From positions 1 to 51,001 of IMG/VR virus record IMGVR_UViG_3300042874_000108: a stretch of 51,001 nucleotides of DNA; one strand, written 5' to 3'. Both the position numbers and the translations under genes were made by a program. The notes under the pieces are model-generated. The model worked only from the letters and a program-made list of their open reading frames with translations. It did not search any database and was not told the DNA's origin. Source of the DNA: a virus (lineage: Duplodnaviria > Caudoviricetes). Below are positions 10,063-51,001 of this stretch, piece by piece; the stretch's first letter is position 1; each line of letters opens with the position of its first letter.

Positions 10063-10313
10063 TTCCTCCCTTTCATAACGCGCGGGTGCAGCCACATCGC
10101 TGCGACAATCCCGATCGGGCCGCCGGCCAGCGTTGCCGCGATCTGCCCGGCGTTAGCGTCGGGAACCAGCCGCCACAGGAAAATCTGCGCAGTCCCGATG
10201 CCGAGGCTGGTGAGGATGGCGGCCAGGTAGTGCCCCCCGTGGACGTTCTTCTGCTGGAAGCCAAGCAGGAACACCGTAAAGAACGCCGAGGCGAATAGGG
10301 CTAGGTGGGTCAT
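10059..10313 (-). CDS. Small membrane protein
   Basis: 84 aa, three hydrophobic segments, coupled to both neighbours. Confidence 0.65.
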   Translation of the reverse strand: MTHLALFASAFFTVFLLGFQQKNVHGGHYLAAILTSLGIGTAQIFLWRLVPDANAGQIAATLAGGPIGIVAAMWLHPRVMKGRK

Positions 10314-11062
10314 TTGGCGGCGGCCTCAGTTGCAAGGCGGTACTGACTGATCTGGAAATAGTTTAGGTCTCTTTCCATGCCGATAAAGCGGCGCCCGGTA
10401 TTGACGCACGCCACCCCCGTCGAGCCGCTCCCCATCGTGTTGTCCAACACCGTCTCACGGGGGTTGCTGTATGTTTTGATGAGGTACTCACACAGGGGCA
10501 CCGGCTTTTGCGTCGGGTGAAAAGTGTTCCCTTCAGAGGGGAAATCTAGGATTTGCCGGGGGTAGCCAGTGAATTCTTGGGTATAACTTTCTAGGTGTAT
10601 TCCCCCGGTGACTACACTCGTGGCCCCGGTCGTTTTTCCGCGAGCGATATGGCTCGCGGAGTTCTTTATTTCCCGGTTCACGACCTCCAGGTCTTGCGGG
10701 TTGTAAGTGGGCTGCTTCCGGTAGAACACCAAGCATTCTTCCACGTCTTTCATCGGCATTTTCTTCGCGTTCAAATGCCCGGTTGCCCGCGTCTTTCTCC
10801 AGAACCACGAATACTTCAGCCACGAAAGGTTCGACGCCCCCAGGGCGCTGGTAAAGGGCTGCGACCCAAAGAGTAAGATGGCTCCATTTTCCTTGACCAC
10901 TCGGCGATACTGTTCCCAAAGACGACTGAAGGGGATAACTGAATCCCACGCGCAGGCAGTCGTGCCGTAGGGCAGATCGCACAAAACCATGTCTACGGAG
11001 CCGTCCGCCAAGCCGCCCATCAACTCAAGGCAGTCCCCGTGCAGCACCACGTTACTTGTCAT
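10310..11062 (-). CDS. DNA N4-C/N6-A methyltransferase (beta class)
   Basis: GDCLELM...DLPY, HPTQKP, LDNTMGSGSTG motifs. Confidence 0.9.
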   Translation of the reverse strand: MTSNVVLHGDCLELMGGLADGSVDMVLCDLPYGTTACAWDSVIPFSRLWEQYRRVVKENGAILLFGSQPFTSALGASNLSWLKYSWFWRKTRATGHLNAKKMPMKDVEECLVFYRKQPTYNPQDLEVVNREIKNSASHIARGKTTGATSVVTGGIHLESYTQEFTGYPRQILDFPSEGNTFHPTQKPVPLCEYLIKTYSNPRETVLDNTMGSGSTGVACVNTGRRFIGMERDLNYFQISQYRLATEAAAK

Positions 11063-12647
11063 TCTCTATCCTCTCAGTCAATGCCTCAGCATCCGCCCGC
11101 CCCAACGCCTGTGCAGATGCCACGTCCACGCCATACGTCAACCAGAAGCGCCGTTGCGCTTGCGACAGGCTCATCCCCTCTGCCACCCGACGCCCGCCCC
11201 ACTGTGCCATCGCCTCGCGCAGCGCCGCCTGAGCCTGCTGCTTCTCGTGGTGGCGCTTCTTGACCGCCCCTGCGACCTCGGGAGTGGCGCTGTAGGGAAT
11301 CACCAGGGGCTTGTCGATCTCGCCGCGCAGCCGCGCCAGCGCATCGGGCGTCAACTCGGCCAGGTCGCCGTCAACCATCTCCGGCCCCGAGCGCCCGGCC
11401 GGCTCCGGGTAGTGGCCGCAGAACGGGCACTCACGGTAGATGCGCTCGTAAACCGACAGGCACGACGGGCAGGTGCGCACCGGGATCACATCGTCGGGCT
11501 TGCCGCGTGCCCGCTTCTCGCGGCGGTCGAGCGTCCAGACTCGGGGAGCGTCGGGGAGGCCGTGGCGGAGGACGTTGCTTACGTGGTCGAAGTAGACCAT
11601 GTGCTCCTTGCCGGGGAAGATGCGCAGCCCCCGCCCAAATCGTTGCGCGAAGCGGTTGAAAGAATGAGACGCGGCCCCATCGCTCACGACCTCCACGCCG
11701 GGGCAGTCGAAGCCCTCATCAATCAAGGCGACTGAGACAATCTGAAGCAAGTCTTTGCGTTTGAACCGACCGATGACGGCGGCGCGCAGGGCGTCCGGAG
11801 TCTTCCCGGTAAGCACTTCCGCCGAGACTCCGGCCTCCCGGAAGTTCTGGGCGATGGTGATGGCGTTTTCTATCGAGTCTGCGAACGTCAACCCAGACTT
11901 CCCCATCGCGTGCTGGACGTAATGCGCCACGATGTCGCCCATTACGGTAGATTTTTTGGTGGCTTCTCGTAGTTCCGGGGGACTGAACTCGCCGCCAGCG
12001 GTCACATGAACCGCGCTCAGATCGAGGTTCGATGGCGGCGCGAAAATACGATAGTTCGATAGCATCCCGGCGTCGATCAAGTCCCTCGGAGTCGGCCCGA
12101 GAAGCAGGGCGTCCATCACCCCGTCCGCGTGGCGCCCGAGTCCGCGTCCGTCTGCCCGCCCAGGGGTTGCCGTAACCCCGAGCCCCCGCGCGTTGGGGAA
12201 CCGGGCAACCGCCTTGCCAAAAAGGTTGCCAGCAGTAATGTGATGCGCTTCATCGTGAACCCACAGTTTCACTTGCCGAAACCAGTCCGGGGGCGCCTTG
12301 CTGGTGACGACGCTTTGTACGCTGCCTACTGCCGTCCGGGCATCCGGGTCGTGGTAGTGAGCGCCGAGTTCATCCAGATGCGCACGAATACAGAGGCGAG
12401 AGAGGGCGCTCGGGCCAATAACGCGGTGGCGCACTTTCTCGCGCGCAAGGGCCAGCGATATTTGAGACACAAGTTCCGCTCGGTGCGCCAGCACGACGGA
12501 CGCGCCCGGTTCCTCCTTGACAATGTGACTGAGCGTGACGGTCTTGCCCCCGCCTGTCGGGAGTACGGCAAGGACGTTGGCGCTCCCGTTCGCCCAGGCC
12601 GCGTTGATGTCGTCGTGCATTTTTTGTTGGTAGGGCCTAAGGTTCAT
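11052..12647 (-). CDS. Superfamily 2 DEAH helicase with C-terminal Zn ribbon
   Basis: LRPYQ, PTGGGKT, DEAHH, TATP, EGFD, QRFGRGLR; CPSC...CPFC. Confidence 0.92.
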   Translation of the reverse strand: MNLRPYQQKMHDDINAAWANGSANVLAVLPTGGGKTVTLSHIVKEEPGASVVLAHRAELVSQISLALAREKVRHRVIGPSALSRLCIRAHLDELGAHYHDPDARTAVGSVQSVVTSKAPPDWFRQVKLWVHDEAHHITAGNLFGKAVARFPNARGLGVTATPGRADGRGLGRHADGVMDALLLGPTPRDLIDAGMLSNYRIFAPPSNLDLSAVHVTAGGEFSPPELREATKKSTVMGDIVAHYVQHAMGKSGLTFADSIENAITIAQNFREAGVSAEVLTGKTPDALRAAVIGRFKRKDLLQIVSVALIDEGFDCPGVEVVSDGAASHSFNRFAQRFGRGLRIFPGKEHMVYFDHVSNVLRHGLPDAPRVWTLDRREKRARGKPDDVIPVRTCPSCLSVYERIYRECPFCGHYPEPAGRSGPEMVDGDLAELTPDALARLRGEIDKPLVIPYSATPEVAGAVKKRHHEKQQAQAALREAMAQWGGRRVAEGMSLSQAQRRFWLTYGVDVASAQALGRADAEALTERIENDK

Positions 12648-12880
12648 TTATATAGCGGCTCGATAAACCCGTCGCAATCCAACCACGCATCTTCTTTGTC
12701 GAAGTAAATCGTCTCGCGGTCAGTCAACCACGCAACTGGAACTGCGTTAGAACTGTCCCGCCGCCCCGCGTTGTAAAACTTCTCGCACAACTCGCGGACT
12801 CGCCTGGTTTGAGCCGGCGTCAGCTTGTCGATGTACGTGTCACTCTTTATCCAGAGATCGGTAAATGCGGCGAAGGTCAT
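12644..12880 (-). CDS. Hypothetical protein
   Basis: GAGG RBS, ATGA overlaps. Confidence 0.6.
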   Translation of the reverse strand: MTFAAFTDLWIKSDTYIDKLTPAQTRRVRELCEKFYNAGRRDSSNAVPVAWLTDRETIYFDKEDAWLDCDGFIEPLYK

Positions 12881-13152
12881 TTCGTGTTCCTCTTTTTGTT
12901 CGTGAGTACCTTGCGGCCATACTGAGCCTCGCGTGTCTTAAATCGATGGAGGGCCCCGACCTCCGACTTCAGAACCCGGATCGCGGAGAGCCTCTGTCTC
13001 AACGAAAGCAGGCGGCCGACGAATACGGGTCGCTTCGTGCCCCACCGTACAGCGAAAGGAACCACGCGCGCCCTTGTACGAAAAGTCCATTCAGCCACGA
13101 CTTCCACCCCAGTCACTCGGTACTGCGGGTAAACATTTGTTTTGATCGGCAT
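12877..13152 (-). CDS. Hypothetical basic protein, first gene of the leftward operon
   Basis: GGAG RBS, 91 aa. Confidence 0.6.
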   Translation of the reverse strand: MPIKTNVYPQYRVTGVEVVAEWTFRTRARVVPFAVRWGTKRPVFVGRLLSLRQRLSAIRVLKSEVGALHRFKTREAQYGRKVLTNKKRNTK

Positions 13153-13173
13153 CTCGTCGTCTCCATTAATTTA

Positions 13174-13202
13174 TTGACAGTTTTGTAAGGATACCCTAAG
13201 AT
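13174..13202 (+). promoter_or_regulatory. Sigma70-like promoter of the rightward replication operon
   Basis: TTGACA-N17-TAAGAT in an AT-rich divergent intergenic region. Confidence 0.7.
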
Positions 13203-13234
13203 GCAATCTCAGTCCACCGAACAGAGGAAATAAA

Positions 13235-14017
13235 ATGAGCGTTACGATCACAATTACCGACCCGTCCAGCACGCCTCCAGAGGAGCTTCAGGCGGTGATG
13301 GGGATGCTGGGGGGCTTCCTGCCTACCTCGCGGTCTGCTTTCGAGGGGCTCGGGGCGTCGGCGGTATTCGGCACGCCGCCTCCCCCGCCCGCGGAACACC
13401 CTGACCTGGTTCCGGTAGTTATGCCGGGAGGCGCGGCGCTCATTATTGGCGTCGAACTCGACAAAGACGGCATCCCGTGGGACGGCCGCATCCACACGCA
13501 AATCAAGTCCAAGACCGTCGAAGGCGTCTGGAAGAAGCGCCGCAACCTTGAGCAGGACTACCTTGCCGCCGTGACCTCCGAGCTGCGGGCGACGATGATG
13601 GCCCCCGCTCCGGTGGCCGAGGTGCCAGCGCCCGCCCCGGTAGCCGAGGTGCCCGCTCCGCCCGCCCCGGTAGCCGAGGTGCCCGCTCCGGTGGCCGAGG
13701 TGCCCGCTCCGGTGGCCGAGGTGCCAGCGCCCGCCCCGGTAGCCGAGGTGCCCGCTCCGCCCGCCCCGGTAGCCGAGGTGCCCGCTCCGCCCGCCCCGGT
13801 AGCCGAGGTGCCCGCTCCGCCAGCGCCCCCTGCAGCCCCCGGCATTTCCTTTGCCGAGTTCATGGGCCACGTTACCGCGGGCGTCACCAGCAGCCGATTC
13901 ACCCGTGAGGGGGTTATGGCGGCGTGCGTGGCGAACGGAGTCCCCAATCTGCCCGGCCTCATCAATCGCCCCGACCTCATCCCGGCGGTGGCACGTGAGT
14001 TGGGGTTGATAGCATGA
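13235..14017 (+). CDS. Phage replication-module protein with Pro/Ala-rich repeat linker
   Basis: GAGG RBS; ELDKDGIPWDGRIH...WKKRR domain, eight APVAEVP repeats, small C-terminal helical domain. Confidence 0.8.
   Translation: MSVTITITDPSSTPPEELQAVMGMLGGFLPTSRSAFEGLGASAVFGTPPPPPAEHPDLVPVVMPGGAALIIGVELDKDGIPWDGRIHTQIKSKTVEGVWKKRRNLEQDYLAAVTSELRATMMAPAPVAEVPAPAPVAEVPAPPAPVAEVPAPVAEVPAPVAEVPAPAPVAEVPAPPAPVAEVPAPPAPVAEVPAPPAPPAAPGISFAEFMGHVTAGVTSSRFTREGVMAACVANGVPNLPGLINRPDLIPAVARELGLIA
13604..13822 (+). repeat. Coding tandem repeat (21-30 bp units, eight APVAEVP copies)
   Basis: CCGGTRGCCGAGGTGCC core repeated eight times. Confidence 0.9.
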
Positions 14018-15144
14018 GCGAGCTCTTCCACTTCCCCCTGTCCGCCAGTGCCGCCGCGCGCTGGGTTGCCTGCGCCGGCAGCGTCAACCTGTGCGCCCTG
14101 TACCCGAGCGGCGACACGCCTAAGTCGATGGAGGGCACGGCGGCGCACTGGGTCGCCAGCGAGACTGTCCTCTGCGGTGCGCCTGCCCTCGGAGCCATCG
14201 CGCCCAACGGTATTGAAGTGACTGAGGAGATGCTGGACGGCGCCGATATGTACGCTGCCGACGTGCTCGCGGTTGCGGGCGTTGGCGGCAAGCTGCACGT
14301 CGAGAAGACGATGGGCAGCCCCCTCATTCACTCGGATTGCGGCGGTACACCCGACGCCTGGCACCACGACTCCGGCAACATCACAGTCTGGGACTACAAG
14401 TTTGGCCACGGGTTTGTTGACGTGTTCGAGAACTGGCAGTTGATTGTGTATGCGGCGGGCATCCTGGAGCAACTCGGCGTCACCAACGACTCCGGCGTGG
14501 ATGACTCGTTCTTCACGTTCACCTTCCGCATCGTGCAGCCCCGCAACTACCACCGCGACGGGCCGATCCGCGAATGGCGAGTGCGCGCCAGCGACCTGCG
14601 AGCCCACTTCAACATTTTGCGCATGGCGGCGGAGAAAGCCTGGCTGCGCACCGACGCAAAATGCACGCCGAACGACCAGTGCGACTACTGCGACGGTCGC
14701 GGCCATTGCGAAGCCCTGCAACAGACCGGCTTCAAGGGCATGGACTACGCCAGCGGCTCCACGCCGCTTGAGTTGACCAACGCTGCGCTCGGCACCGAAC
14801 TCACGCTCATCAACCACTACCTCGCGCGGCTCGAAGCGCGCAAGACCGGCCTCGAAGAAATGGCCGTCGCCCAGATCAAAGCGGGGGACAGAGTGCCGGG
14901 CTTTGCGCTCGACTCGACCGTTGGCCGCCTCGCGTGGTCAAAGCCGGTTGAGGAAGTGATCGCGCTGGGGCAAATGATGGGCGTTGAGGTCAGCAAGCCG
15001 GGCGTCATCACTCCGACACAGGCGATCAAGGCGGGCTTGCCGGACACGGTGGTTGCGGGGTACTCGGCGCGGCCCGCAGGCAGTTTGAAGCTGGTGGCGT
15101 CCAAGCACTCGGAGGCGCGTCGGGTGTTTGGTGGTGGCGCATAA
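14014..15144 (+). CDS. DUF2800-type Cas4-like PD-(D/E)xK nuclease
   Basis: SASAAARWVAC, EGTAAH, GTPDA...WDYKFG, QLIVYA, CDYC...C (Fe-S-type cysteines). Confidence 0.85.
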   Translation: MSELFHFPLSASAAARWVACAGSVNLCALYPSGDTPKSMEGTAAHWVASETVLCGAPALGAIAPNGIEVTEEMLDGADMYAADVLAVAGVGGKLHVEKTMGSPLIHSDCGGTPDAWHHDSGNITVWDYKFGHGFVDVFENWQLIVYAAGILEQLGVTNDSGVDDSFFTFTFRIVQPRNYHRDGPIREWRVRASDLRAHFNILRMAAEKAWLRTDAKCTPNDQCDYCDGRGHCEALQQTGFKGMDYASGSTPLELTNAALGTELTLINHYLARLEARKTGLEEMAVAQIKAGDRVPGFALDSTVGRLAWSKPVEEVIALGQMMGVEVSKPGVITPTQAIKAGLPDTVVAGYSARPAGSLKLVASKHSEARRVFGGGA

Positions 15145-15194
15145 CGCTTGACATAACCGGCGCGCTTTAGCGCGTCCAACTTGGAGAAGATGAT

Positions 15195-15458
15195 ATGGAA
15201 TATGAAGAAGTGATTTCGGCGTGGAATGCGCAGGCGGACGACGCGAATAGCTGGGATGCGTTAGGCGAGGACGAAAAGATAGACTTCACCACGGCTCTAG
15301 GGCGCGAGGCGTGCGCTGCCGAGATTCGCAAACTGCGCGAACTTTGCCGCGAGGCTTACCACGCGCTGAGTTGCGGCGAGGACGGTGAGGAGTTCGACCG
15401 CACTCATGCTTTATGCGGCAAACTCTCGCTGGAGTTTGTGATGACGCCTATCGCATAG
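15195..15458 (+). CDS. Hypothetical protein (cassette-like)
   Basis: GGAG RBS, 87 aa, bracketed by attC-like sequences. Confidence 0.6.
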   Translation: MEYEEVISAWNAQADDANSWDALGEDEKIDFTTALGREACAAEIRKLRELCREAYHALSCGEDGEEFDRTHALCGKLSLEFVMTPIA

Positions 15459-15504
15459 CTAGGGGGCACGCTTCAGCGCGTCCAACTTGAGCGCCTGGTT
15501 AGGC
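15446..15504 (+). other. attC-like 59-bp element
   Basis: GCCTATC (one mismatch to RYYYAAC) ... central hairpin ... GTTAGGC; core nearly duplicated at 15163-15183. Confidence 0.5.
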
Positions 15505-15522
15505 TCGACGGAAAGGTGAGAA

Positions 15523-15726
15523 ATGACAGAAATGCAGAAATACAGGAAATCGCTAGAACGGCATCCAGGCGTGCCGATTGCCGCAGCATTCACCGCGCTA
15601 GGGTTTGCCGCTGGCGCCAGTAAAGGCGGAGACTGGATTGTGGGCGGGGTGATCGGGGCTGCGGTCATGTCGGTGTTTTGGTTGCCCGTGCTTTGGACTG
15701 CGTGGGATATGAGAAACGGTGCCTAA
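15523..15726 (+). CDS. Small two-TM membrane protein (cassette-like)
   Basis: AAGGTG RBS; stop codon lies inside GCCTAAC. Confidence 0.6.
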   Translation: MTEMQKYRKSLERHPGVPIAAAFTALGFAAGASKGGDWIVGGVIGAAVMSVFWLPVLWTAWDMRNGA

Positions 15727-15843
15727 CGCCCAAGGCAAGCCTCCCGCCGCCAACGAACCGAACGAAGGAGAGAACCCGTGAACGACCAGAAAAACACAAA
15801 CGAAGCCGCTTGCGGCGGGTCGGCCTTGACCGCCGAGTTAGGA
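15721..15843 (+). other. attC-like element
   Basis: GCCTAAC...CAAGGC...CCCGCCGC-loop-GCGGCGGG...GCCTTG...GTTAGGA nested inverted repeats. Confidence 0.55.
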
Positions 15844-16062
15844 CTGAAACCATGCCCGTTTTGCGGTAAGGCTGAAACGCTGGGCGTGATTACCGGGCAG
15901 GAGCTTATGGACGACGATCAAGAGTTTTGGCCGCACTCGGATTCTTATGCCGTGGTGTGTGATGCGGCAACTGGCGGTAAAGGCGGCTGCGGGGCAATGG
16001 GCGGATTTGCTGGCACCAAGCCACAAGCCATTGCCAGGTGGAACACGCGCGCCCCTAACGCA
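15778..16062 (+). CDS. Lar-like restriction alleviation Zn-finger protein; end given is the domain end, since the frame stays open to 17190
   Basis: AAGGAG RBS; LKPCPFCG...VVC...CGA...AIARWNTRA pattern. Confidence 0.65.
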
Positions 16063-16116
16063 CGATGGCCCCTCGCCCAATTAACCCCCCAATTAACCAG
16101 CCAAGCCACATTTTCC

Positions 16117-16144
16117 TTGACAAACGCCGTTCAGCGGGTATTAT
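16117..16144 (+). promoter_or_regulatory. Sigma70-like internal promoter
   Basis: TTGACA-N16-TATTAT just upstream of the ORF at 16151. Confidence 0.55.
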
Positions 16145-16150
16145 GGAGCC

Positions 16151-16360
16151 ATGAAAAGCGAGAAATCGGACATAAGAATCAGCGTCAGGCGCGGGGATGG
16201 GAAGACTCGGAAGATCGAGCTTTTCCCGCACGTGCTGCCGGGGCGCTATTTAATCAAGGTAGACGGTCTCAAATCCGGGAAAGTCGCCACAACCACCGTG
16301 ACCGAGGTAATGCACAAACTTCGGGAGTGGCTATCAACCAAAAGGAGCAACGAGCAATGA
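16151..16360 (+). CDS. Hypothetical basic protein
   Basis: GGAG before ATG; ATGA overlap with SSB start. Confidence 0.55.
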   Translation: MKSEKSDIRISVRRGDGKTRKIELFPHVLPGRYLIKVDGLKSGKVATTTVTEVMHKLREWLSTKRSNEQ

Positions 16361-17190
16361 AGAACTTCACGACACCCGTAGGCCGTTTTGTAACGGGCAG
16401 CCTCACCAAACCCCAGACCACCGATTTTGACGGCAACCCCCTGGTCTTCAAGACGGGCCCGGATGCGGGGAAGCCACGCAACAACTACTTCATCGGCATC
16501 GCTGTCCCCAAGGGCGCCGAGACGCACTGGAGCCAGACGCCCTGGGGCGCAGAAATCTGGAAGTTCGGTCACGAGGCTTTCCCGCAGGGACAGGCGGACT
16601 TGCCGGGGTTCTCGTGGAAGATCGAGGATGGAGACAACGCAGTCCCCAACCCGGACGCCGGCATGAAGCGCAACTGTGACCGCGAGGGGTACAAAGGCTG
16701 CTGGGTTCTCAAGTTCTCCTCCAGCTTCCAGTCGAGCACGTACAACTCCGACGGCAGCGCCAAGATTGAGCCGGAGTCGGTCAAGCCGGGCTACTTCATC
16801 CAGATAAACGGCGACATGCAGAGCAACGGCAAGCAAAGCAAGTCCGGCGTCTACCTCAATCACAAGATGATCGCCCTGGCCGCCTACGGCTCAGAGATTG
16901 TCTACGGCCCCGACGCTGCCGAGGCTGGCTTCGGCGCAAGCCCGCTGCCCGCTGGAGCATCCGCCGTCCCGGTGGCGAGCTTCGCGCCGCCTGCTGCGCC
17001 CCAAGCGCCCGCTGCACCTCAAGCGCCGGTGGCTCCGCCGCCCCCCGCACCTGCCTTCCTGCAAGTGCCGCCGCCGGCCGCCCTGGCTCACGTCATGTTG
17101 CCGCCGGCCAACGGCGCAACTTACGAGGCCATGCGCGCGGCGGGCTGGACTGACGCCACGTTGGTTCAGATGGGGATGATGGTGGGATGA
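16357..17190 (+). CDS. Single-stranded DNA-binding protein (DUF2815/gp2.5-like)
   Basis: AAGGAG RBS; TPVGRFV...KIEDGD...GCWVLKF...GVYLN; typical position between DUF2800 and polymerase. Confidence 0.75.
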   Translation: MKNFTTPVGRFVTGSLTKPQTTDFDGNPLVFKTGPDAGKPRNNYFIGIAVPKGAETHWSQTPWGAEIWKFGHEAFPQGQADLPGFSWKIEDGDNAVPNPDAGMKRNCDREGYKGCWVLKFSSSFQSSTYNSDGSAKIEPESVKPGYFIQINGDMQSNGKQSKSGVYLNHKMIALAAYGSEIVYGPDAAEAGFGASPLPAGASAVPVASFAPPAAPQAPAAPQAPVAPPPPAPAFLQVPPPAALAHVMLPPANGATYEAMRAAGWTDATLVQMGMMVG

Positions 17191-17378
17191 TGGACGAGGT
17201 ACTTGACGCCAAGCGCCGCCTTCAAACCGCGGTCATGCGCGCCTGCCGTGCGGAGTTGCGGGCGTTCGAGAAGGAAAGGGGGTTTCGCATGGATCGAGTG
17301 AGCACGGAGTTGGGCACCAGAGACCCCGAGTCCCTCAACCTGCGCATTGAAATTGTGGCAAGGAGGGGGAAACAGTGA
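17187..17378 (+). CDS. Hypothetical protein
   Basis: 63 aa, coupled to both neighbours. Confidence 0.55.
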   Translation: MMDEVLDAKRRLQTAVMRACRAELRAFEKERGFRMDRVSTELGTRDPESLNLRIEIVARRGKQ

Positions 17379-17614
17379 ACCCAATCGCCCGATTGAGGGA
17401 GGGAGCCGCCGGCACCTGCGGGTCGTGCAGGTATTGGAGCCCGTGTGCCGGGGACACCAGCGTTGGCGATTGTGACTCTGCTCTTCTCGTAAAGGGGTAC
17501 GGCGACCCCCCGGCTATCGTCCCTTCCAACATGGCCTTTGTTGAGGCTGACGAAGGCTGGGCGTTCCTTTCTGGCCCGGACTTTGGCTGCGTGAACTGGG
17601 AGCCAAACGAGTGA
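17375..17614 (+). CDS. Small Cys-rich protein
   Basis: GGAGG RBS; CGSCRYW...GDC...FGCVNW. Confidence 0.6.
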   Translation: MNPIARLREGAAGTCGSCRYWSPCAGDTSVGDCDSALLVKGYGDPPAIVPSNMAFVEADEGWAFLSGPDFGCVNWEPNE

Positions 17615-17628
17615 TGGTGGGCTGAGGC

Positions 17629-17905
17629 GCAGCGCAACGATACACGGCCAGCGTCTCCTAACGGGGGCGTTGTCCGGGTCTTGGTTGGCCCAAAGGCAGG
17701 GCAGCGCACTGCACGGCACGGCAAGGCAACGCACTGCATAGCAACGCAACGATACACGGCCAACGTCTCCTAACGGGGGCGTTGTCCGGGTCTTGGTTGA
17801 CCCAAGTGCACCGCAGGGCAAAGCAGTGCAACGCCCAGAAAAACACGGCACGGCAACGCAACGCAACGACACACGGAACCGGCGAGGAATATTCCGAGCC
17901 TTTTA
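17629..17905 (+). ncRNA. Putative structured guide-RNA array: GCA-NN pentamer tracts alternating with a conserved two-hairpin repeat
   Basis: 60-bp repeat at 17634-17693 and 17746-17805 (two mismatches, both keeping stems via G-U); 11 GCA-NN pentamers at 17696-17750; 12-unit tract at 17808-17867. Confidence 0.7.
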
Positions 17906-17919
17906 TAGAGGAAGCGAAA

Positions 17920-18519
17920 ATGGCAATTCAGCAAGCAGCAATCACAATTACCGGCATGGACTACCTGCTCCAAAACAACCCGCAGACCGTTGACCCGTTC
18001 AACCACTTCGCCAAGGCCATGAAGAAGATCACCGCCAAGCGCACGGGGAAGACCGAAGACGATCTGATCGAGCTGGGCAACATCGAAACGGAATCGAAGA
18101 TTTACTTCGACGACAACCTCGGTGTGTACGTCCCTTCGCGCTGGCTCACGGAAGCGATCTGCCGCGCGGCGTTCTCGGTAATCAAGATTGGCAAGGACAG
18201 GATGCGCGGCGGTATCTTCGCTACCGACGGCAAGGCCAAGTTGTCGTATGAGGGCATGGGCAAAGTCAAGACCATTACCGACGTGGTGAGGCTCCCGGAG
18301 TTCCGCCACCGCGCCTTGCTGCCGCAGGGAGCCGTGCGTATTGCAAAGGACTTCCCGATTTTCAAGAACTGGTCTTTCTCAACGGTGCTTGAGTTCGACG
18401 ACACGGTTATCGACCTCGCTGGGCTGCGCCAGGTTACTGAGCGGACAGCGAAGTACGTCGGCTTCGGTGACTTCCGCCCCACCTTCGGTCGTGCCACTGC
18501 GGAGGTGCAAGGTGTCTAA
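17920..18519 (+). CDS. Stand-alone Cas7/RAMP-like RNA-binding protein (Vipr-like)
   Basis: GAGG RBS, ATG 17920, 199 aa; ITITG..LL beta strand, YVPSRWLTEAI helix (cf. RAMP IPGSSLKG), C-terminal Gly-rich loop VGFGDFRPTFGR. Confidence 0.7.
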   Translation: MAIQQAAITITGMDYLLQNNPQTVDPFNHFAKAMKKITAKRTGKTEDDLIELGNIETESKIYFDDNLGVYVPSRWLTEAICRAAFSVIKIGKDRMRGGIFATDGKAKLSYEGMGKVKTITDVVRLPEFRHRALLPQGAVRIAKDFPIFKNWSFSTVLEFDDTVIDLAGLRQVTERTAKYVGFGDFRPTFGRATAEVQGV

Positions 18520-18928
18520 AGAACTACTGGTAGAACTTGAGAAGCGCGGCCTCCTTGACTTCGGGGAGGTCATTCCCGCCGCCATTGTCCGCGACCTGCT
18601 GGGGCTTGAGTACCCTACGACCGCAACGAAGAAAGAGTTTGACGCCTTGTCCCTGGCTGAACTGAAGGCGGTTGACTACGTTCGTAATGTCCTCCTCGGT
18701 CGCGGCATGTACCTGGCTGGACAAGGCGGCGACTACCGAATCCTGCTTCCCTCGGAGAACGCGAGGCAGATAGAGCTGTACATATCCTCCGCCGACGGTA
18801 AGTTGAGCCGGGCACTGAAGTTGAGTCGGAACACGCCGAAACTGGCGGACAAGAAGCACACGAACGACCAGACGAGTGCGCGCATAATCATGAAGCGCGA
18901 GGGAGTGCGGCGGGGAATCGGCAGATGA
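18512..18928 (+). CDS. Hypothetical accessory protein coupled to the RAMP-like gene
   Basis: GGAGG RBS at 18501, GTG start overlapping the upstream stop, ATGA overlap with the polymerase. Confidence 0.7.
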   Translation: MSKELLVELEKRGLLDFGEVIPAAIVRDLLGLEYPTTATKKEFDALSLAELKAVDYVRNVLLGRGMYLAGQGGDYRILLPSENARQIELYISSADGKLSRALKLSRNTPKLADKKHTNDQTSARIIMKREGVRRGIGR

Positions 18929-21123
18929 CCCCCATAGCCAACATCGACTTCGAGACCTACTCCGAGGCGGGCTTCATCTGGGACGCCGCGCGCAACAAGT
19001 GGGCCGCCCTCCCCGGCGCGTCTCAGGGCAAAAAGGGTCTTCCGGTCGTTGGCGCGTCGGTCTACGTCGGGCACCCCACTTTCGAAGTGCTGACGCTCTC
19101 CTACGACCTGCGGCAAGGCGCCGGCGTTCAAAGGTGGCAACCGGGCTTACCGCCACCCGTTGACCTGCTGGCGCACGTCGCCTCGGGCGGCCTGGTGTCA
19201 GGCTGGAACGCGGCGGGCTTCGAAATGAAAGTGTGGCGTCACTGTGTCGATCGCTACCGCTGGCCGCCGCTGCCGCTTTCACAGGTGCGGGACACGATGG
19301 CCGCCGCGCGTGCCTTCTGCCTGCCGGGGGCGCTGGGTAAGGCCGGAGAAGTGATGGCGCTCTCGCAACAGAAGAACGCCGACGGCAAGCGCCTGCTCGA
19401 CAAGTTCAGCATTCCGCGCAACCCAACCCAGCCCAACCCGGCGTTACGCATCAGGCCCGCCGACGACCCTGCCGACGCCGAGAAGCTGTACGCCTACTGC
19501 GACGAAGACGTGCTCACCGAGCAAGAGGCGGGCAGCCTCATCCCACCGCTGTCGCCCAAAGAGTTGGCCGCATGGCAAACCGATCGCGGCATCAACGACC
19601 GGGGCGTGCAGATTGACCTCGAAGGCGCCCACAACTGCATCGCCATCCTTAACCAGGCGCATAGGCAATACAACGCCGAATTGCGCGCGCTCACGGGCGG
19701 CACGGTTGAACGCGCGTCGGAACTGGCCAAGCTGCAAGGCTGGCTGGGGGCGCAGGGGGTCGTCATGGGGTCAATGGACGAGGAGGCGATTGGCTCGACC
19801 CTCGCACAAGAGCTACCCGCCCCCGCCCGCCGCGCCCTTGAAATCAGGCAAGCGGTCGGCAGCGCGTCGGTCAAGAAGGTCTTTGCAATGGCCAACACGG
19901 TGTCTCGGGACGGGCGGCTGCGAGACCTCTTCATTTACCACGGTGCGAGAACAGGGAGACCGACTGGTTCTGGCCCTCAGCCAACCAATCTCCCCAACAG
20001 CGCTGGGGTCTTTGCCCTCGAATGTGAGGGCTGCGACAAGCACTACGGCGTCAGCCTGCCCTCGTGCCCGTGGTGCGGTGCGTCGGCCACCCTGGCGCAC
20101 ACGGTCGAGTGGGGGGCGGAATGCGCTGAAGACGCGCTTGAGTCCTTCAAGCCGCGCTCGCTCGACTGGGCGGAGTATGTGTGGGGTGACTCGATGGCCG
20201 CGCTGTCCGGCAGCCTGCGGGGGCTGTTCATCGCTGCGCCGGGTCATGACTTGATCTGCTCGGATTACTCCAGCATCGAGGCCGTCGGGCTGGCAATGCT
20301 GGCTGGGGAGCAGTGGCGGATCGACCTGTTCCGTTCACACGGGAAGATTTACGAGATGTCGGCCAGCAAGACCACCGGTATCCCGTTCGAGGAGATTCTC
20401 GAACACAAGAGAAAGACCGGCCAGCACCATCAAGTCCGCAAGCTGGGCAAGGTGCAAGAGTTGGCCCTCGGCTATCAAGGCTGGGTCGGCTCCATGCTCG
20501 CCTTTGGCGCCGACGAGTTCATGTCGGAAGCCGAGATGAAGGAAGCCATACTCGCGTGGCGCGCGGCTTCCCCCGCCATCGTTGAGTTGTGGGGCGGCCA
20601 GGAGCGCAACTGGCAGCCCGAGTACTACGGCGTGGAGGGCGCGTTCGTGCAGGCCGTCCTGACTCCCGGCGCGGCGTACCGCACACACGGCATGGACTTC
20701 CAGATGCGCGGCGATGCGCTGTTCCTGCGGTTGCTGTCCGGGCGGGAGTTGACCTACCACCGCCCCCGGCTCGCCCCCAGCACCCGCCGCCCCGGCACGT
20801 GCTCGATCAGTTACGAGGGGTGGAACAGCAACCCCAAGAACGGGCCGCAAGGCTGGCAACGGATGGAGACGTGGGCTGGGAGGCTCGTTGAGAACATCAA
20901 CCAGGCGCAGTGCCGCGACATCCAGTGGCACGGAGTTCAGGCGTTAGAGCGCGCGGGTTACCCGATCGTGCTCCACGTCTACGATGAAGATGTGGCGGAA
21001 GTGCCAGAGGGCTTCGGAAGTATCGAAGAGTTCGAGCGTGTGATGGGCGACTTGCCCGAGTGGTGCGCCGACTGGCCGATCAAAGCGGCAGGCGGCTGGA
21101 GAGGAAAGAGGTATCGCAAATGA
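18925..21123 (+). CDS. polA: Family A DNA polymerase (APSE-like) with 3'-5' exonuclease
   Basis: DFETYSE ExoI, DYSSIE motif A, RKLGKVQELALGY motif B, LHVYDE motif C. Confidence 0.93.
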   Translation: MTPIANIDFETYSEAGFIWDAARNKWAALPGASQGKKGLPVVGASVYVGHPTFEVLTLSYDLRQGAGVQRWQPGLPPPVDLLAHVASGGLVSGWNAAGFEMKVWRHCVDRYRWPPLPLSQVRDTMAAARAFCLPGALGKAGEVMALSQQKNADGKRLLDKFSIPRNPTQPNPALRIRPADDPADAEKLYAYCDEDVLTEQEAGSLIPPLSPKELAAWQTDRGINDRGVQIDLEGAHNCIAILNQAHRQYNAELRALTGGTVERASELAKLQGWLGAQGVVMGSMDEEAIGSTLAQELPAPARRALEIRQAVGSASVKKVFAMANTVSRDGRLRDLFIYHGARTGRPTGSGPQPTNLPNSAGVFALECEGCDKHYGVSLPSCPWCGASATLAHTVEWGAECAEDALESFKPRSLDWAEYVWGDSMAALSGSLRGLFIAAPGHDLICSDYSSIEAVGLAMLAGEQWRIDLFRSHGKIYEMSASKTTGIPFEEILEHKRKTGQHHQVRKLGKVQELALGYQGWVGSMLAFGADEFMSEAEMKEAILAWRAASPAIVELWGGQERNWQPEYYGVEGAFVQAVLTPGAAYRTHGMDFQMRGDALFLRLLSGRELTYHRPRLAPSTRRPGTCSISYEGWNSNPKNGPQGWQRMETWAGRLVENINQAQCRDIQWHGVQALERAGYPIVLHVYDEDVAEVPEGFGSIEEFERVMGDLPEWCADWPIKAAGGWRGKRYRK

Positions 21124-21326
21124 CGGACATCAACCAATTCAGGACGGCTAGACGAAAGATGGAGGGCAGCATCGGAGACGCAGTGGCGGCCGCACTGCTG
21201 GTGTTCCGAGAGAGCACGGGGATGTCCCCGAGGGGCATACAAGTCGAACTCGTTGATGTCTCTGAAGTTGGCGAGATAGAGGCACGCTACTGCCTCGGTA
21301 CGGTGCGTGCCGACGTACCCCTGTAA
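21120..21326 (+). CDS. Hypothetical protein
   Basis: GAGG RBS, ATGA overlap with polymerase stop. Confidence 0.6.
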   Translation: MTDINQFRTARRKMEGSIGDAVAAALLVFRESTGMSPRGIQVELVDVSEVGEIEARYCLGTVRADVPL

Positions 21327-21342
21327 TCCAAGGAGATCAAAA

Positions 21343-21471
21343 ATGAAGCAAGACAACTTTGGGTTTCGTGCCCAGCGCCGGGTGGACGATGAATCCGCCA
21401 ATATCGATGCCGCCATCGTGGTTTTCTGCCTGTGCCTTGCGGCCGCCTGGGTGCTGGGGGGTTTCCTGTGA
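21343..21471 (+). CDS. Small single-TM protein (42 aa)
   Basis: AAGGAG RBS; read directly, below the ORF-track cutoff. Confidence 0.55.
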   Translation: MKQDNFGFRAQRRVDDESANIDAAIVVFCLCLAAAWVLGGFL

Positions 21472-21737
21472 GTGACTTTCATCCCAACAGCGCGGGAGGT
21501 TTGACGTATGCCGCCCAACAAGTCCCAACGAGCCGAGAGCAGCGCAGCGAACTTCTTGCTGACGTTCGTATGATCTTCGACGGCTTGCAGGAACTTTGCG
21601 ACAGCGTTCGCCGTAGCTGGCCGGAGCGGTACCCAATGCCAGGAGACCTCGACGCCCTGCTGGAGTTTCAGGTCTACGCGCTGGCCCGCATCAGGTCGGG
21701 CACGCTGCGGCAGGTATCCAAGGCGGACTTGGGATGA
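21468..21737 (+). CDS. Hypothetical protein
   Basis: GTGA and ATGA coupling. Confidence 0.55.
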   Translation: MSDFHPNSAGGLTYAAQQVPTSREQRSELLADVRMIFDGLQELCDSVRRSWPERYPMPGDLDALLEFQVYALARIRSGTLRQVSKADLG

Positions 21738-22009
21738 TCCTCACGGAAGAGCTCACCCTCGTGTTCCAGAAGAAGCTGGCCAAAACCGGGAGCCTTGACG
21801 CGGCGCTCACCAAGGCGCTTTGGGTTGCCTACAAGGCTGGGCAGCCGTGCGCGGGGGGTTGCCACGAGGCGCTGGACGAGCTACATAAACTCCGTGAAGC
21901 GGCGCAGCACTACTACGACAACTGCCTTCGAGGGGAGTCGGCGTTATGCCACGACGAAAAACAACAGGAGGCGCTGGCAGCGCTTCGGGACGCACTGGAC
22001 AAGACATGA
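21734..22009 (+). CDS. Hypothetical protein
   Basis: 91 aa, coupled at both ends. Confidence 0.6.
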   Translation: MILTEELTLVFQKKLAKTGSLDAALTKALWVAYKAGQPCAGGCHEALDELHKLREAAQHYYDNCLRGESALCHDEKQQEALAALRDALDKT

Positions 22010-22407
22010 GCCTTTTTTGTGAAGTTGGTGGCGACGACACGGCCTGGTGGTGGTATCCGCCCTCCCACGAGGAGCCGCTGGCGACCAAGCGCAGCCGAAA
22101 GTGCTGCTCGTGCGACCATAAGATCGACGTTGGCGACACGGCGCGGAAGGTTCCGCGCTACCGGCCGCCAACTCTGTTCGAAGACAAGCACGGTATAGCC
22201 GGCGACGAAGTGCCTCTGGCCGACTGGTATCTGTGTGAGACATGCGGCGACCTGGCGGACTCAATTTCGGAGGCCGGGCTTTGCTACCGCCTCGGCAGAG
22301 ACAGCCTGCGAGATCAGATCGCTGAGCACCGGCGGGAGGAAGCGGCGCGCACAGTAACAACCTCAACTCAACAAACAGGAGAGCAACTTCACCCGAATGC
22401 CGGATAA
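22006..22407 (+). CDS. Zn-finger protein
   Basis: KCCSC...YLCETC; last gene of the rightward operon. Confidence 0.6.
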   Translation: MSLFCEVGGDDTAWWWYPPSHEEPLATKRSRKCCSCDHKIDVGDTARKVPRYRPPTLFEDKHGIAGDEVPLADWYLCETCGDLADSISEAGLCYRLGRDSLRDQIAEHRREEAARTVTTSTQQTGEQLHPNAG

Positions 22408-22667
22408 ACAGTGAGTGCCGCCGCTTCTCCCGTCCACCTGCCAGTCGGCATCTCGACGTAAGCCTGTAGCGTCCATCCCCCGTGCTGATCGAAGTCGGCA
22501 GTCAGGGTGGTGTAGCGCACGGTGGTGCCGCTCACAGTTGCAACCCACGTCACGGCAGTTCCGTCGGGCTTCTTGGCCTTGACGTTGACCAGCGTAGCCG
22601 TGGACAGGTCGGCGCCGGTGTCGAGTTCGACCAGTGTCCCGGTATCCCCCACATAAACTTTGCTCAT
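22389..22667 (-). CDS. Small beta-rich (BppU/Ig-like) virion protein
   Basis: YVGDTGT...KKPDGT..W...Y...DFDQHGGW.LQAYV; GGAG RBS. Confidence 0.65.
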   Translation of the reverse strand: MSKVYVGDTGTLVELDTGADLSTATLVNVKAKKPDGTAVTWVATVSGTTVRYTTLTADFDQHGGWTLQAYVEMPTGRWTGEAAALTVYPAFG

Positions 22668-22834
22668 GTGTTCTCCAATTCAATAAACGAGGCCAGCGCC
22701 ACCGTCCTGCGCAGCGCCGAGGAAAGCACCACGGACTGCTCGACGGTGCTGGCGGCAATCACGGACTGCTCGACGGTGCTGGTGGCAATCACAGATTGTC
22801 GGAGGGTGCTTAGCAGCGAAAGTACTTCAATCAT
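22664..22834 (-). CDS. Small protein with 10-aa repeats (STVEQSVIAA)
   Basis: Read directly, 56 aa, ATGA overlaps at both ends; 30-bp tandem repeat at 22730-22810. Confidence 0.55.
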   Translation of the reverse strand: MIEVLSLLSTLRQSVIATSTVEQSVIAASTVEQSVVLSSALRRTVALASFIELENT

Positions 22835-23001
22835 CTGTCAGACCTCAGTACAACGCTCTTCACCAGGACGGACGCACGGCTCACGGTGCGCAGAAGGGGC
22901 GAAGCCAGCCGCACAACCTCCCGCAGCACTCCCGCCGCCACCCCGCCCCAGCTCGCGCCCCACGCCGAAGCCTTCCAGCTACTACCCCAAGGGTTGCTCA
23001 T
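22831..23001 (-). CDS. Small Trp/Gly-repeat virion-associated protein
   Basis: MSNPWGSSWKASAWGASWG; coupled to neighbours. Confidence 0.55.
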   Translation of the reverse strand: MSNPWGSSWKASAWGASWGGVAAGVLREVVRLASPLLRTVSRASVLVKSVVLRSDR

Positions 23002-24209
23002 GCCGGCCCCCACTCATTGCCGACCGTGCCTGCTCCGGTCACGGCCACGTTGTTGACCTTGCGTATGTCCGCCCACACTGGTGTTGCCTGAGCTGCCGCC
23101 AGCAGGGCCGCAGACATGTCGGCTTTCGAGATTTGAGCGTCGGTCAGCACGGTCATCCCGGACGTGTTGGTGATGCTGGAGACGCCACGAATATATATCA
23201 TCCCGGCAGTGCAGGTGCTATCGATAATAACCTCCCCACCACCACCTACGTCTAGGCAAACAGTATTCGCGGCGTTCGTGCTGTTGACGAACTTGATCGG
23301 GCCTGCCCAGTTACGGAATGCGAGATTATGCGTGCCGGGAGCGGACAGGTCGATCTTCGGCAAGTCAGTAGTTCCTAATCCGACGCAGCCCGATTTACAA
23401 TCCACAAAATACGTGTTGGCAGTGTTTGGTGTAATGGTGATATTACCCGTCAGCACGCACCCCTCAGCAAACCCGAAGAACCCGCCCACCTCTGACACCA
23501 CGCAGTGCTTTAGGTACGTGTTGCCGTCAAGCGTGGACGTGTTCAGGATCAAATCCTCGAACTGCACGTCAGTCACCGTGGTCGCCGCTGCCACCTGCAC
23601 GAAGGTGCGAATGGCGTGAGAGCCACACACCACGAAGCCAGACAGATCGTCCCCGGCACCGAAAGAGTAGTTCCCCGGAGCAAGCTGGAACTCTCCCAAC
23701 CCCCGCACCTGCGCGATCAGTTTGGCATCGGCGACGTTGTTCGACGGCCGGGCATACGTCCCTATTGGGTAGCCAGTGCCCGCCACACCGTTCACTGGGT
23801 CGTAGACCACGCGCCCGTCATACGCCCCGTCCTCAGTTGCCCGGATGCCCACCAGGCCCGCTGAGTTGCTCGGAACAAGTGACACCTGATTCGGGTTGCG
23901 CCGGGAGTGAATGTTGTTGTTCGACCCCACGATGTTGACTTGGTACTGCGCATCCTCGAAGGTCACAGTGTACGGGGTCAACACTTCGATGGTGCGGGCG
24001 TAGTCCAGCCCGTCAATCGTCACCACGGTATTGTGGACATGCGTCTTCGGCAGGTAGATGCCGTCTTCACTATCCATCCAGTCGTCGAGCCAGTGGCGAA
24101 ACAGGTTGCTGTCCAGCTCCCGAATCTCGTTCGGTGTTGACTGGATCAGCGTCAAGTCGGCCTTGGGCACGTTTATGACGAAGGTTGCAGGGTTTATGAA
24201 GATCGTCAT
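22998..24209 (-). CDS. Accessory virion/tail fibre-like protein
   Basis: 403 aa, beta-rich with solenoid-like middle, in late operon. Confidence 0.65.
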   Translation of the reverse strand: MTIFINPATFVINVPKADLTLIQSTPNEIRELDSNLFRHWLDDWMDSEDGIYLPKTHVHNTVVTIDGLDYARTIEVLTPYTVTFEDAQYQVNIVGSNNNIHSRRNPNQVSLVPSNSAGLVGIRATEDGAYDGRVVYDPVNGVAGTGYPIGTYARPSNNVADAKLIAQVRGLGEFQLAPGNYSFGAGDDLSGFVVCGSHAIRTFVQVAAATTVTDVQFEDLILNTSTLDGNTYLKHCVVSEVGGFFGFAEGCVLTGNITITPNTANTYFVDCKSGCVGLGTTDLPKIDLSAPGTHNLAFRNWAGPIKFVNSTNAANTVCLDVGGGGEVIIDSTCTAGMIYIRGVSSITNTSGMTVLTDAQISKADMSAALLAAAQATPVWADIRKVNNVAVTGAGTVGNEWGPA

Positions 24210-50632: not shown

Positions 50633-50704
50633 ATTCCATCAATCCTCCGCTGGGTCAGCAGGCCGCAACGGGCGCAACGTGTTCCTTTGAACTTCATGGG
50701 CGCG

Positions 50705-50805
50705 AGTATAGGGCCTCTCCGGGTTTCGTCAAGTTCCTCGTCAGCACGGGCTTCGTCAAGTTACTCGTCAGCATAGGGGCTCTCCGGGTTTCGTCAAGTT
50801 ACTCG
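50705..50805 (-). promoter_or_regulatory. Tandem sigma70-like late promoters within three direct repeats
   Basis: Minus strand TTGACG-N16-TATACT (50732-50705) and TTGACG-N16-TATGCT (50797-50770); repeats at 50720-50746, 50747-50773, 50785-50805. Confidence 0.65.
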
Positions 50806-50886
50806 GCGCTAACTTTTGGAATTTTTCATTTTTATAAAAACTCGCGCGGAGGGGGTGCGCTGTGTTGCCTCGGGGGTCCTGGCGTC

Positions 50887-51001
50887 GCCCTGCCCTGCCC
50901 TGCCCTGCCCTGCCCTGCCCTGCCCTGCCCTGCCCTGCCCTGCCCTGCCCTGCCCTGCCCTGCCCTGCCCTGCCCTGCCCTGCCCTGCCCTGCCCTGCCC
51001 T
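50887..51001. repeat. Right-end perfect pentanucleotide repeat (GCCCT)23
   Basis: Runs to the end of the window. Confidence 0.95.

Follow-up and report, generated by a model that had tools for sequence, protein, structure and literature searches.

A covarying double hairpin beside a vipr homologue as the probable guide-RNA tail of a phage VIPR system with GCA-coded repeats

Here, we analyze an intergenic repeat in the virus record IMGVR_UViG_3300042874_000108 (Duplodnaviria; Caudoviricetes; the complete record, 51,001 bases, hereafter "the window"), in which two copies of a double hairpin are set between tracts of GCA-headed pentamers directly upstream of a gene encoding a homologue of the guide-RNA-binding protein Vipr. 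The double hairpin is under strong structural selection as a plus-strand RNA, and sequence comparisons make it very probable that it is the structured 3′ tail, or handle, of the guide RNAs (vrRNAs) of a phage VIPR (Viral Interference Programmable Repeat) system. Further, its sequences indicate that this lineage keeps the VIPR logic while using a different repeat code (GCA, not GGY) and a different handle fold (a double hairpin, not a pseudoknot).

VIPR systems, in print since April 2026, are described as CRISPR-like DNA-silencing systems (10.64898/2026.04.26.720920). As the text of that preprint has it, a minimal phage RAMP protein, Vipr, polymerises on vrRNAs carrying 9–16 pentamers, each composed of a fixed GGY triplet and a hypervariable dinucleotide (NN), and the pentamer tract is followed by an invariable 3′ extension, the tail, whose conserved secondary structure "parallels crRNAs" (CRISPR RNAs; 10.64898/2026.04.26.720920). 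The vrRNAs are described as roughly 100-nt RNAs that co-purify with Vipr, and the RAMP features reported for the protein are an RRM core, a G-loop, and a thumb. According to the 2026 VIPR preprints, the NN dinucleotides read double-stranded DNA with one base skipped per unit, competing satellites and prophages serve as the natural targets, and a vap gene follows vipr. In the cryogenic electron microscopy structures reported for the system of Escherichia phage SUSP1, the tail caps the 3′ end (10.64898/2026.04.26.720927), while a later preprint treats the shared tail as conferring competence for Vipr complex formation (10.64898/2026.10.15.759431), and VIPR systems are proposed to be related to CRISPR effector complexes or to have preceded them. 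The experiments and structures described in these sources concern two closely related systems that read GGY and carry a pseudoknot tail.

The array lies in an open reading frame (ORF)-free gap (17615–17919, plus strand) within the replication module. Two 60-nt copies of the repeat, at 17634–17693 and 17746–17805 and 112 nt apart, are present as the original prediction described them, and they differ at exactly two of the 60 positions (17651 G versus 17763 A, and 17688 G versus 17800 A). Tandem Repeats Finder reported a 112-nt unit repeated 2.1 times (17629–17863, 82% matches, score 314), and a repeat comparison gave 79% identity between 17629–17740 and 17741–17852. RNAfold of each copy on the plus strand reproduced both of the stems that had been proposed: in the first, 17649–17658 pairs with 17663–17672 around a UAAC loop, with two additional outer G-C pairs, and in the second, 17676–17680 pairs with 17687–17691 around the loop UUGGUU. 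These folds have energies of −27.4 kcal/mol for copy 1 (z −3.24, equalled by 1 of 200 shuffles) and −28.0 kcal/mol for copy 2 (z −4.26, 0 of 200), versus poorer values on the reverse strand (−14.1, z 0.09, and −20.5, z −2.19). Both differences between the copies fall within predicted stems, opposite a U, and exchange G-U in copy 1 for A-U in copy 2, which preserves pairing on the plus strand only, as had been claimed; on the minus strand copy 1 would have C-A mismatches at both variable positions, and additional G-U pairs in the first stem would also be C-A mismatches there. Folding of the whole 305-nt intergenic region gave nothing better than shuffles (z −0.96 on the plus strand and −0.79 on the minus strand); the signal is that of the individual hairpins and of the comparison among relatives.

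For these comparative data, loci were gathered by a Vipr protein search and then with a six-member alignment, yielding 5 + 21 viral loci (partly on the same contigs), 69 metagenome loci, and three genome loci (an Azonexus chromosome and metagenome-assembled genomes (MAGs) of Isosphaeraceae and Saccharimonadales); the lineage is represented by about 90 environmental phage and prophage contigs among those fetched. Most of the viewed segments among 137 distinct inter-tract segments give two adjacent hairpins with quite different stem sequences. The original prediction had proposed folding and covariation analysis of homologous arrays as its check, and strong covariation emerged by each of three routes, i.e., RNAalifold, a larger model-fitted alignment, and mutual information. 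First, RNAalifold on a MAFFT alignment of 20 tails returned 16 pairs, 12 of them with compensatory double changes. A covariance model built on these 20 tails and searched with cmsearch then detected, in 270,335 bases from 83 sources, 178 tails (E up to 0.01) beside vipr homologues, and 177 of the 178 lie on the vipr strand. In the alignment fitted to this model (A3; the best 150 of the 178 matches, comprising 134 distinct tails), 94.8% of cells held standard pairs versus 35–52% when the 3′ partners were slid by 1–3 columns, 14 of the 16 pairs changed on both sides, and the covariation score was 0.70 versus 0.05–0.20 for the slid versions, a value that none of 500 shuffles reached. All nine top-ranking column pairs by mutual information are pairs of the tail structure. 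G-U pairs are also conserved in this alignment (one pair is U-G in 122 of 131 cells, and a second is G-U in 52), and the strand is therefore fixed as plus. A plus-strand RNA, as originally inferred, is thus supported by the strand of the model matches, the conserved G-U pairs, and the greater stability of the plus-strand folds.

The full covariance model places the window tails at 17642–17695 (copy 1, 50.3 bits) and 17754–17807 (copy 2, 48.4 bits), both on the plus strand. A second covariance model, built from 17 relatives' tails with the window and its nearest look-alike left aside, found in the 51-kb genome only these two sites (30.9 bits, E 4.6e-6, and 28.6 bits, E 1.7e-5, respectively; both plus), with no further site up to E 10. 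The tail consensus consists of ACG-CGG, a 2×2 internal loop, an 8-bp inner stem with a loop that is often GCAA, and CCG, followed directly, with no linker, by a 4–5-bp hairpin whose U-rich loop starts with G, and then CAA. Helix 1 of tail copy 1, with its outer C/G pairs, single mismatch, 10-bp inner stem, and UAAC loop, is stacked on hairpin 2 (5 bp, loop UUGGUU, then the terminal CAA), so that relative to the consensus the internal loop is reduced to a single C/U mismatch and the loop of helix 1 reads UAAC; tail copy 2 has A-U in place of G-U in each hairpin. Across the 134 tails, C4, G5, C41, G42, U15-G31, G47, and C68 are near-invariant. The tail also keeps register with the pentamers, the distance from the last GCA to its start being divisible by 5 in 91 of 93 tails, and the first GCA of the next tract follows hairpin 2 by 4 or 5 nt in 52 of 71 cases. 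A conserved, structured tail is accordingly found directly 3′ of the tract, where VIPR systems have theirs.

Several further observations concern these tails. Within single arrays of two relatives (L002, 2393–3000, and L003, 880–1478), tails differ strongly in stem sequence while the fold is kept, unlike CRISPR repeats. The two window tails, by contrast with this divergence, are identical at 58 of 60 positions, which suggests that the pair arose by recent duplication. Some relatives carry extra tails, and hence guide units, downstream of vipr and vap, as in SUSP1 (L023, 2604–2767; L094, 2670–2957; L056, 2694–2739); the window has no tails downstream of vap, because the polymerase gene follows that gene directly. 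Columns 2 and 44 of A3 (window 17643/17677 and 17755/17789) also covary (C-G 102, A-U 20, U-A 5, unpaired 5). The former corresponds to the second base of the last guide dinucleotide and the latter to base 2 in the 5′ arm of hairpin 2, a base that also pairs inside that hairpin; the covariation may reflect an alternative pairing that extends helix 1 past a G-A mismatch, a base triple, or shared ancestry.

Preceding each window tail is a pentamer tract on the plus strand. Tract 1 (17629–17641) is a stub that follows the stop codon at 17612–17614 and comprises two pentamers, GCAGC and GCAAC, and a degenerate GAT; the tract finder detected no run of at least four GCA pentamers there. Tract 2 (17696–17753) holds 11 GCA+NN pentamers (17696–17750), with the dinucleotides GG, GC, CT, CG, CG, AG, AC, CT, TA, AC, and AC, and again ends in a degenerate GAT, while tract 3 (17808–17872) has 13 pentamer slots, of which three in mid-tract are degenerate (GCC, GAA, and ACA), and closes with GCAAC GCAAC GAYAC, a terminus common to the other units. 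A unit is thus about 112 nt long, with about 11 GCA+NN pentamers and then a tail in register. Base-shuffled copies of the window contained on average 0.02 GCA runs of at least four pentamers. Apart from the array, the window has one such run on the plus strand, of four units, inside the single-strand-binding protein gene (16818–16840), and one on the minus strand, the perfect repeat at the contig end.

GCA was also the commonest period-5 triplet upstream of vipr in 66 of 89 loci (duplicates included; four loci had almost no upstream DNA). In 103 distinct tracts, mostly 10–13 pentamers long and 1096 pentamers in all, the two positions after GCA carry only 0.07 and 0.02 bits; the frequency of GCA itself is circular in this count, as the tracts were found via GCA, but the missing information at NN is not. 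Guide tracts in the range of about 9–16 pentamers with hypervariable dinucleotides are therefore found here as in VIPR systems, with GCA as the triplet instead of the canonical GGY. Some Vipr relatives (45–66% identity) have other fixed triplets, namely GAA in L030, L059, L064, L068, and L091 and GCC in L060.

The third unit ends differently. As originally noted, a hairpin followed by a T-run is present at 17881–17904 on the plus strand; by RNAfold it contains a 2×2 internal mismatch and is followed by UUUU, 16 nt before the vipr start codon. The first bases of the tail, ACACGG, here run straight into this hairpin and its UUUU, which replace the double hairpin, while in five close relatives (L002–L006) the last unit has a double hairpin of variant form, after which a separate hairpin with a T-run precedes vipr. 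Folded alone, the hairpin is weak (−9.4 kcal/mol, z −1.2, equalled by 27 of 200 shuffles), and a simple terminator scan did not call it; it probably serves as a weak terminator or attenuator ahead of vipr. The third guide may be defective, or the terminator hairpin may serve as its cap.

The gene downstream of the array (17920–18519, plus strand) encodes a 199-aa homologue of the RAMP-family guide-RNA-binding protein Vipr (phrog_4652, E 2.4e-48; PDB 36pp_D), which agrees with the earlier suggestion of a RAMP-like protein beside the array. With phmmer against PDB, the sole significant match was 36pp_D, "SUSP1 Vipr protein" (E 3.3e-15, residues 8–197 against 6–190 of 202), and a profile from six clade members matched PDB 36pp at E 7.7e-16; Pfam gave no matches to the 199-aa protein. 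The two proteins align over 190 residues at only ~30% identity and have in common the G-loop GxGD[WF]RPxFGR, and we regard the window protein as a predicted minimal RAMP protein of the Vipr type. A Vipr relative occurs in 130 GenBank phage records, always below 60% identity to window Vipr; the nearest phages by this protein are Vibrio phage 1.266.O and Listonella phage phiHSIC (~50% identity), and the Felixounavirus group, which includes SUSP1-like phages, stands at ~30%.

How the protein might read a different triplet can be approached through the contacts described for SUSP1 Vipr, in which G1 is held by H17 and D177, G2 by R138 and W178, and a Y3 pocket formed by E71, M72, C173, T175, and R179 excludes purines (10.64898/2026.04.26.720927). 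In a pairwise alignment at 30% identity, the G1/G2 contacts H17, D177, R138, and W178 correspond to N19, D184, F145, and F185 of window Vipr, respectively, and the Y3 pocket to W75, L76, V180, F182, and R186, i.e., the Asp, aromatic, and Arg of the G-loop are retained (D184, F185, and R186) and the remaining mapped contacts differ. Among 78 clade members, N19, W75, D184, F185, and R186 are almost invariant and none has Arg at 145. These residues are consistent with positions 2 and 3 of the triplet being read differently, and the protein-RNA contacts cannot equal those of SUSP1 because SUSP1 Vipr, as described, excludes purines at position 3 and the window triplet is GCA. Across the relatives, the fixed triplet (GCA versus GAA or GCC) did not correlate with the Vipr residues at the mapped contact sites.

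Following vipr is a putative vap-like accessory gene of 138 aa (18512–18928, plus strand), whose GTG start overlaps the vipr stop and has a GGAGG 5 nt upstream; of the 106 loci fetched (duplicates included), 85 have such a gene immediately after vipr. In a single pairwise BLASTP comparison, it matched the gene after vipr (the vap1 position) in SUSP1-like phage HY02 at 24% identity over 119 aa (E 2e-5), while Pfam, PHROG, and PDB sequence searches returned no match. An AlphaFold model of the protein has a predicted local distance difference test score (pLDDT) of 86.6, and a fold search with this model gave nothing at E ≤0.001, the weak top rows being mostly winged-helix DNA-binding proteins (best E 0.1). 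Type II vap genes are described as predicted DNA binders (10.64898/2026.04.26.720920), with which the weak winged-helix-type matches of the model would loosely agree.

Set against the type II VIPR systems (Escherichia phage SUSP1 and a Pseudomonas fulva prophage; PDB 36pp), the window locus likewise has a structured element 3′ of pentamers built from a fixed triplet and NN, is phage-borne, lies on the vipr strand beside Vipr and a putative accessory gene, and has units of ~100 nt. The differences, as far as the type II systems are described, are in the fixed triplet (GCA versus GGY), in the tail (~54 nt with two stacked hairpins, versus ~40 nt described as a pseudoknot in the SUSP1 clade), and in placement (all units upstream of vipr and abutting, versus one vrRNA upstream and three downstream in SUSP1). 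The SUSP1-like phage HY02 has GGT+NN repeats, not GCA+NN, and its locus yields no match to the double-hairpin model after these repeats. Other repeat codes have been anticipated: the text of the discovery preprint allows "a related consensus" and gives the alternatives NNNGG, YNNNG, and NNNNG (10.64898/2026.04.26.720920), and a later preprint describes 21 clusters (6,318 sequences) of period-5 arrays with a non-GGY triplet beside Vipr-like folds (10.64898/2026.10.21.760802). The window GCA/NN array is of the same general class as the latter, whose text names the triplets GAC, CAC, WGT, and TGH but not GCA, though TGH may represent a DCA-type motif on the opposite strand. The running text of both preprints (10.64898/2026.04.26.720920 and 10.64898/2026.10.21.760802), as distinct from their figures and supplements, lacks the string "GCA", which we do not take to mean that a GCA/NN array is unreported.

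The likeness to CRISPR is one of layout: CRISPR repeats and the crRNA handles bound by Cas6-type RAMP proteins are also conserved, often hairpin-forming repeats that flank variable guides and serve a RAMP-family effector. CRISPR spacers are contiguous, however, whereas the window has dinucleotides interleaved with a fixed triplet, and CRISPR arrays have near-identical repeats, whereas tails within one array of relatives L002 and L003 diverge greatly. The locus was not classed as a CRISPR array: its "spacers" are pentamer-coded tracts, no cas family (cas1/cas2-type included) was noticed among the 17 proteins of 10310–23255 scanned with Pfam and PHROGs, Rfam found no CRISPR repeat family in the window, and nothing points to spacer acquisition. 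The original comparison to CRISPR repeats as processing or capping handles nonetheless finds support, by sequence and by analogy, in the covariation, the strand, the Vipr neighbor, and the published vrRNA layout.

By analogy with SUSP1, the plus strand of the array would be transcribed, and Vipr protomers would polymerise along each tract, one per pentamer, with the fixed triplet held and NN presented. The folded tail would cap the 3′ end and mark the RNA as a cognate guide, and the filament would bind double-stranded DNA that matches the NN dinucleotides, skipping one base per pentamer, and so silence a competing mobile element. The units are probably cut from one precursor at or near the junction of tail and tract, because the next tract follows hairpin 2 after only 4–5 nt and the promoter scan called nothing within the array. 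The terminal hairpin and U-run would probably end or attenuate the transcript before vipr.

Several results weigh against a vrRNA tail, or against a working VIPR system, at this locus. The GCA triplet has a purine at position 3, which SUSP1 Vipr is described to exclude, and unit 1 is nearly guideless while unit 3 lacks a double hairpin, which leaves a single canonical unit among the three. Alignment A3, having been fitted to the covariance model, is biased towards its structure, a concern partly answered by the MAFFT-only seed alignment and by the mutual-information ranking. A simple promoter and terminator scan of 17100–18100 called no promoter-like site and no plus-strand terminator, and the sequencing runs listed for the phage sequence include no RNA but three DNA runs labelled cave metagenome. 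Finally, searches for targets, made by exact matching of NN under the rule of one skipped nucleotide, found no match of tract 2 or tract 3 in viral contigs, a weak negative as it covers exact matches and the published criterion is an NN match of at least 80% (10.64898/2026.04.26.720920); the 18-base core of tract 2 had six matches in genome contigs, below the ~17 estimated by chance under uniform base composition.

The remaining target searches gave little more. One site in a Terriglobia MAG (L107, 1501–1532) matches all 11 NN of tract 2 (22 of 22 bases; ~0.07 expected by chance in the collection), but it is chromosomal, at the 3′ end of an AcrB-family transporter gene beside a membrane-fusion protein gene, and probably a chance match. 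No self-targets were found in the window with up to three mismatches. When 93 relatives' guides were compared with the window, their mean best NN match was 0.702 versus 0.700 for order-shuffled guides, and the sole outlier, an L023 guide with 21 of 26 bases at 21763–21801 (corrected p ~0.04 under uniform composition), is not convincing as a target.

We further considered whether the locus belongs to a separate VIPR lineage, set apart by its protein-RNA code and by how its guides are capped and released, in which a GCA reading, precursor cutting, and tail switching would hold jointly; taken together, we regard this as a speculative extension that is probably wrong in at least some part. On this proposal Vipr would read GCA, with a purine at the position closed to purines in SUSP1 and a C in place of the G that SUSP1 cradles. 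Guides might be released from one precursor by a cut at the tail-tract junction, possibly a Cas6-like cut made by Vipr. The 5′ arm of hairpin 2 might pair with the final dinucleotide of the guide (AC in nearly all cases), and the tail could then alternate between two states, an open double hairpin and a closed cap resembling a pseudoknot.

Among the alternatives to a guide-RNA tail, the least improbable is that the hairpins are only processing or stability signals (e.g., an RNase III or RNase E site, or a block to 3′ exonucleases that sets apart guides cut out of a long precursor) and that Vipr recognizes the GCA tract alone. The abutting of units at 4–5 nt in an array devoid of promoter-like sites means that cutting is needed, and the sequence of the helix 1 inner stem is free even within one array (L002 and L003), which fits a role of shape only. 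Near-invariant nucleotides outside the stems and at their ends in the 134 tails, however, suggest specific recognition, and the SUSP1 tail is described as capping the filament in the ribonucleoprotein; we consider this explanation unlikely, while noting that the roles of processing signal and protein handle are not exclusive of each other.

A second alternative, that the array is a cis-acting leader of the vipr-vap operon, with repeated attenuators or terminators and with pentamer tracts as a site that titrates the protein, would account for its position directly upstream of vipr on the same strand and for the hairpin and U-run 16 nt before the start codon, which recur as a hairpin and T-run in relatives L002–L006. 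It does not account for the tails themselves, since neither tail 1 nor tail 2 of the window is followed by a U-run and some relatives have further tails downstream of vap (L023, L094, and L056), nor for the hypervariable NN, which a titration site does not need, and we judge it very improbable.

We give almost no credence to a replication origin or iteron field that acts as DNA between the single-strand-binding protein and DNA polymerase genes, despite the repeat-rich, ORF-free gap inside the replication module. Pairing is kept via G-U wobbles that exist on one strand only, and the tail matches follow the vipr strand; the array travels with vipr and not with replication genes, as upstream genes differ among relatives and the phiHSIC vipr is located among head and tail genes. 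In addition, a 5-bp period corresponds to half a turn of B-DNA. Type III toxin-antitoxin loci (ToxIN) have tandem RNA repeats, a hairpin with a U-run, and then a small protein gene, and their ToxI units are identical and roughly 36 nt long. A ToxI-like repeat RNA with a terminator and a toxin gene is just as implausible here, in that the layout (repeats, hairpin and U-run, and a gene of roughly 200 aa) is only superficially similar, the protein being a Vipr homologue with no Pfam match at all and the 112-nt units being three times longer and carrying hypervariable dinucleotides. The origin and toxin-antitoxin ideas, together with that of a TRAP-like ring protein, were early candidates that were dropped upon the Vipr match (36pp_D).

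If the double hairpin is a vrRNA tail, an odd intergenic repeat is explained as part of a recently described system, and the lineage offers, through natural variation, a way to test where the RNA is recognized by its sequence and where by its shape, as well as a second, orthogonal guide scaffold for programmable DNA silencing. The covariance model (54 positions, 16 pairs) is ready for the annotation of such arrays, for which Rfam has no coverage.

The surroundings of the array are those of a phage replication module. Upstream, the Pfam and PHROGs scan identified a DUF2800/PD-(D/E)XK exonuclease (14014–15144) and a single-strand-binding protein (15778–17190, 470 aa) in which a Lar-like restriction-alleviation domain (residues 23–92) is joined to a Gp2.5-like single-strand-binding/annealing protein (residues 192–469); downstream of the vap-like gene it identified a family A DNA polymerase (18925–21123). 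Two small ORFs lie between the single-strand-binding protein gene and the array. One of them, a Cys-rich ORF of 79 aa directly upstream of the array (17375–17614, stop codon 17612–17614), matched neither Pfam nor PHROG entries, and it is probably not part of the VIPR system because the genes upstream of the array differ in relatives L004–L006. Rfam gave no match at the gathering threshold in the whole window and, in 17300–18100, only five chance-level matches (E 6.7 or worse); a search for transfer RNAs and transfer-messenger RNAs found none; 17375–18520 had no DNA similarity to GenBank phages; and the exact 21-nt core of the tail had no match in viral contigs.

Both ends of the record lie in repeats, at 1–250 and 50891–51001. 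The former are ~30-nt tandem repeats within an open frame. The latter is a perfect pentanucleotide repeat that runs up to the contig end and reads GCAGG ×22 on the minus strand, i.e., a GCA+NN unit as in the guide tracts, but with NN constant and with no double-hairpin tail; the assembly may have broken within a repeat here, or this may be a repeat of the genome end or a GCA tract without a tail. Just inside it, the minus strand of 50700–50835 carries three direct repeats, each with leftward promoter-like boxes (TTGACG ... TATGCT/TATACT), which from their sequence are probably an early promoter cluster.

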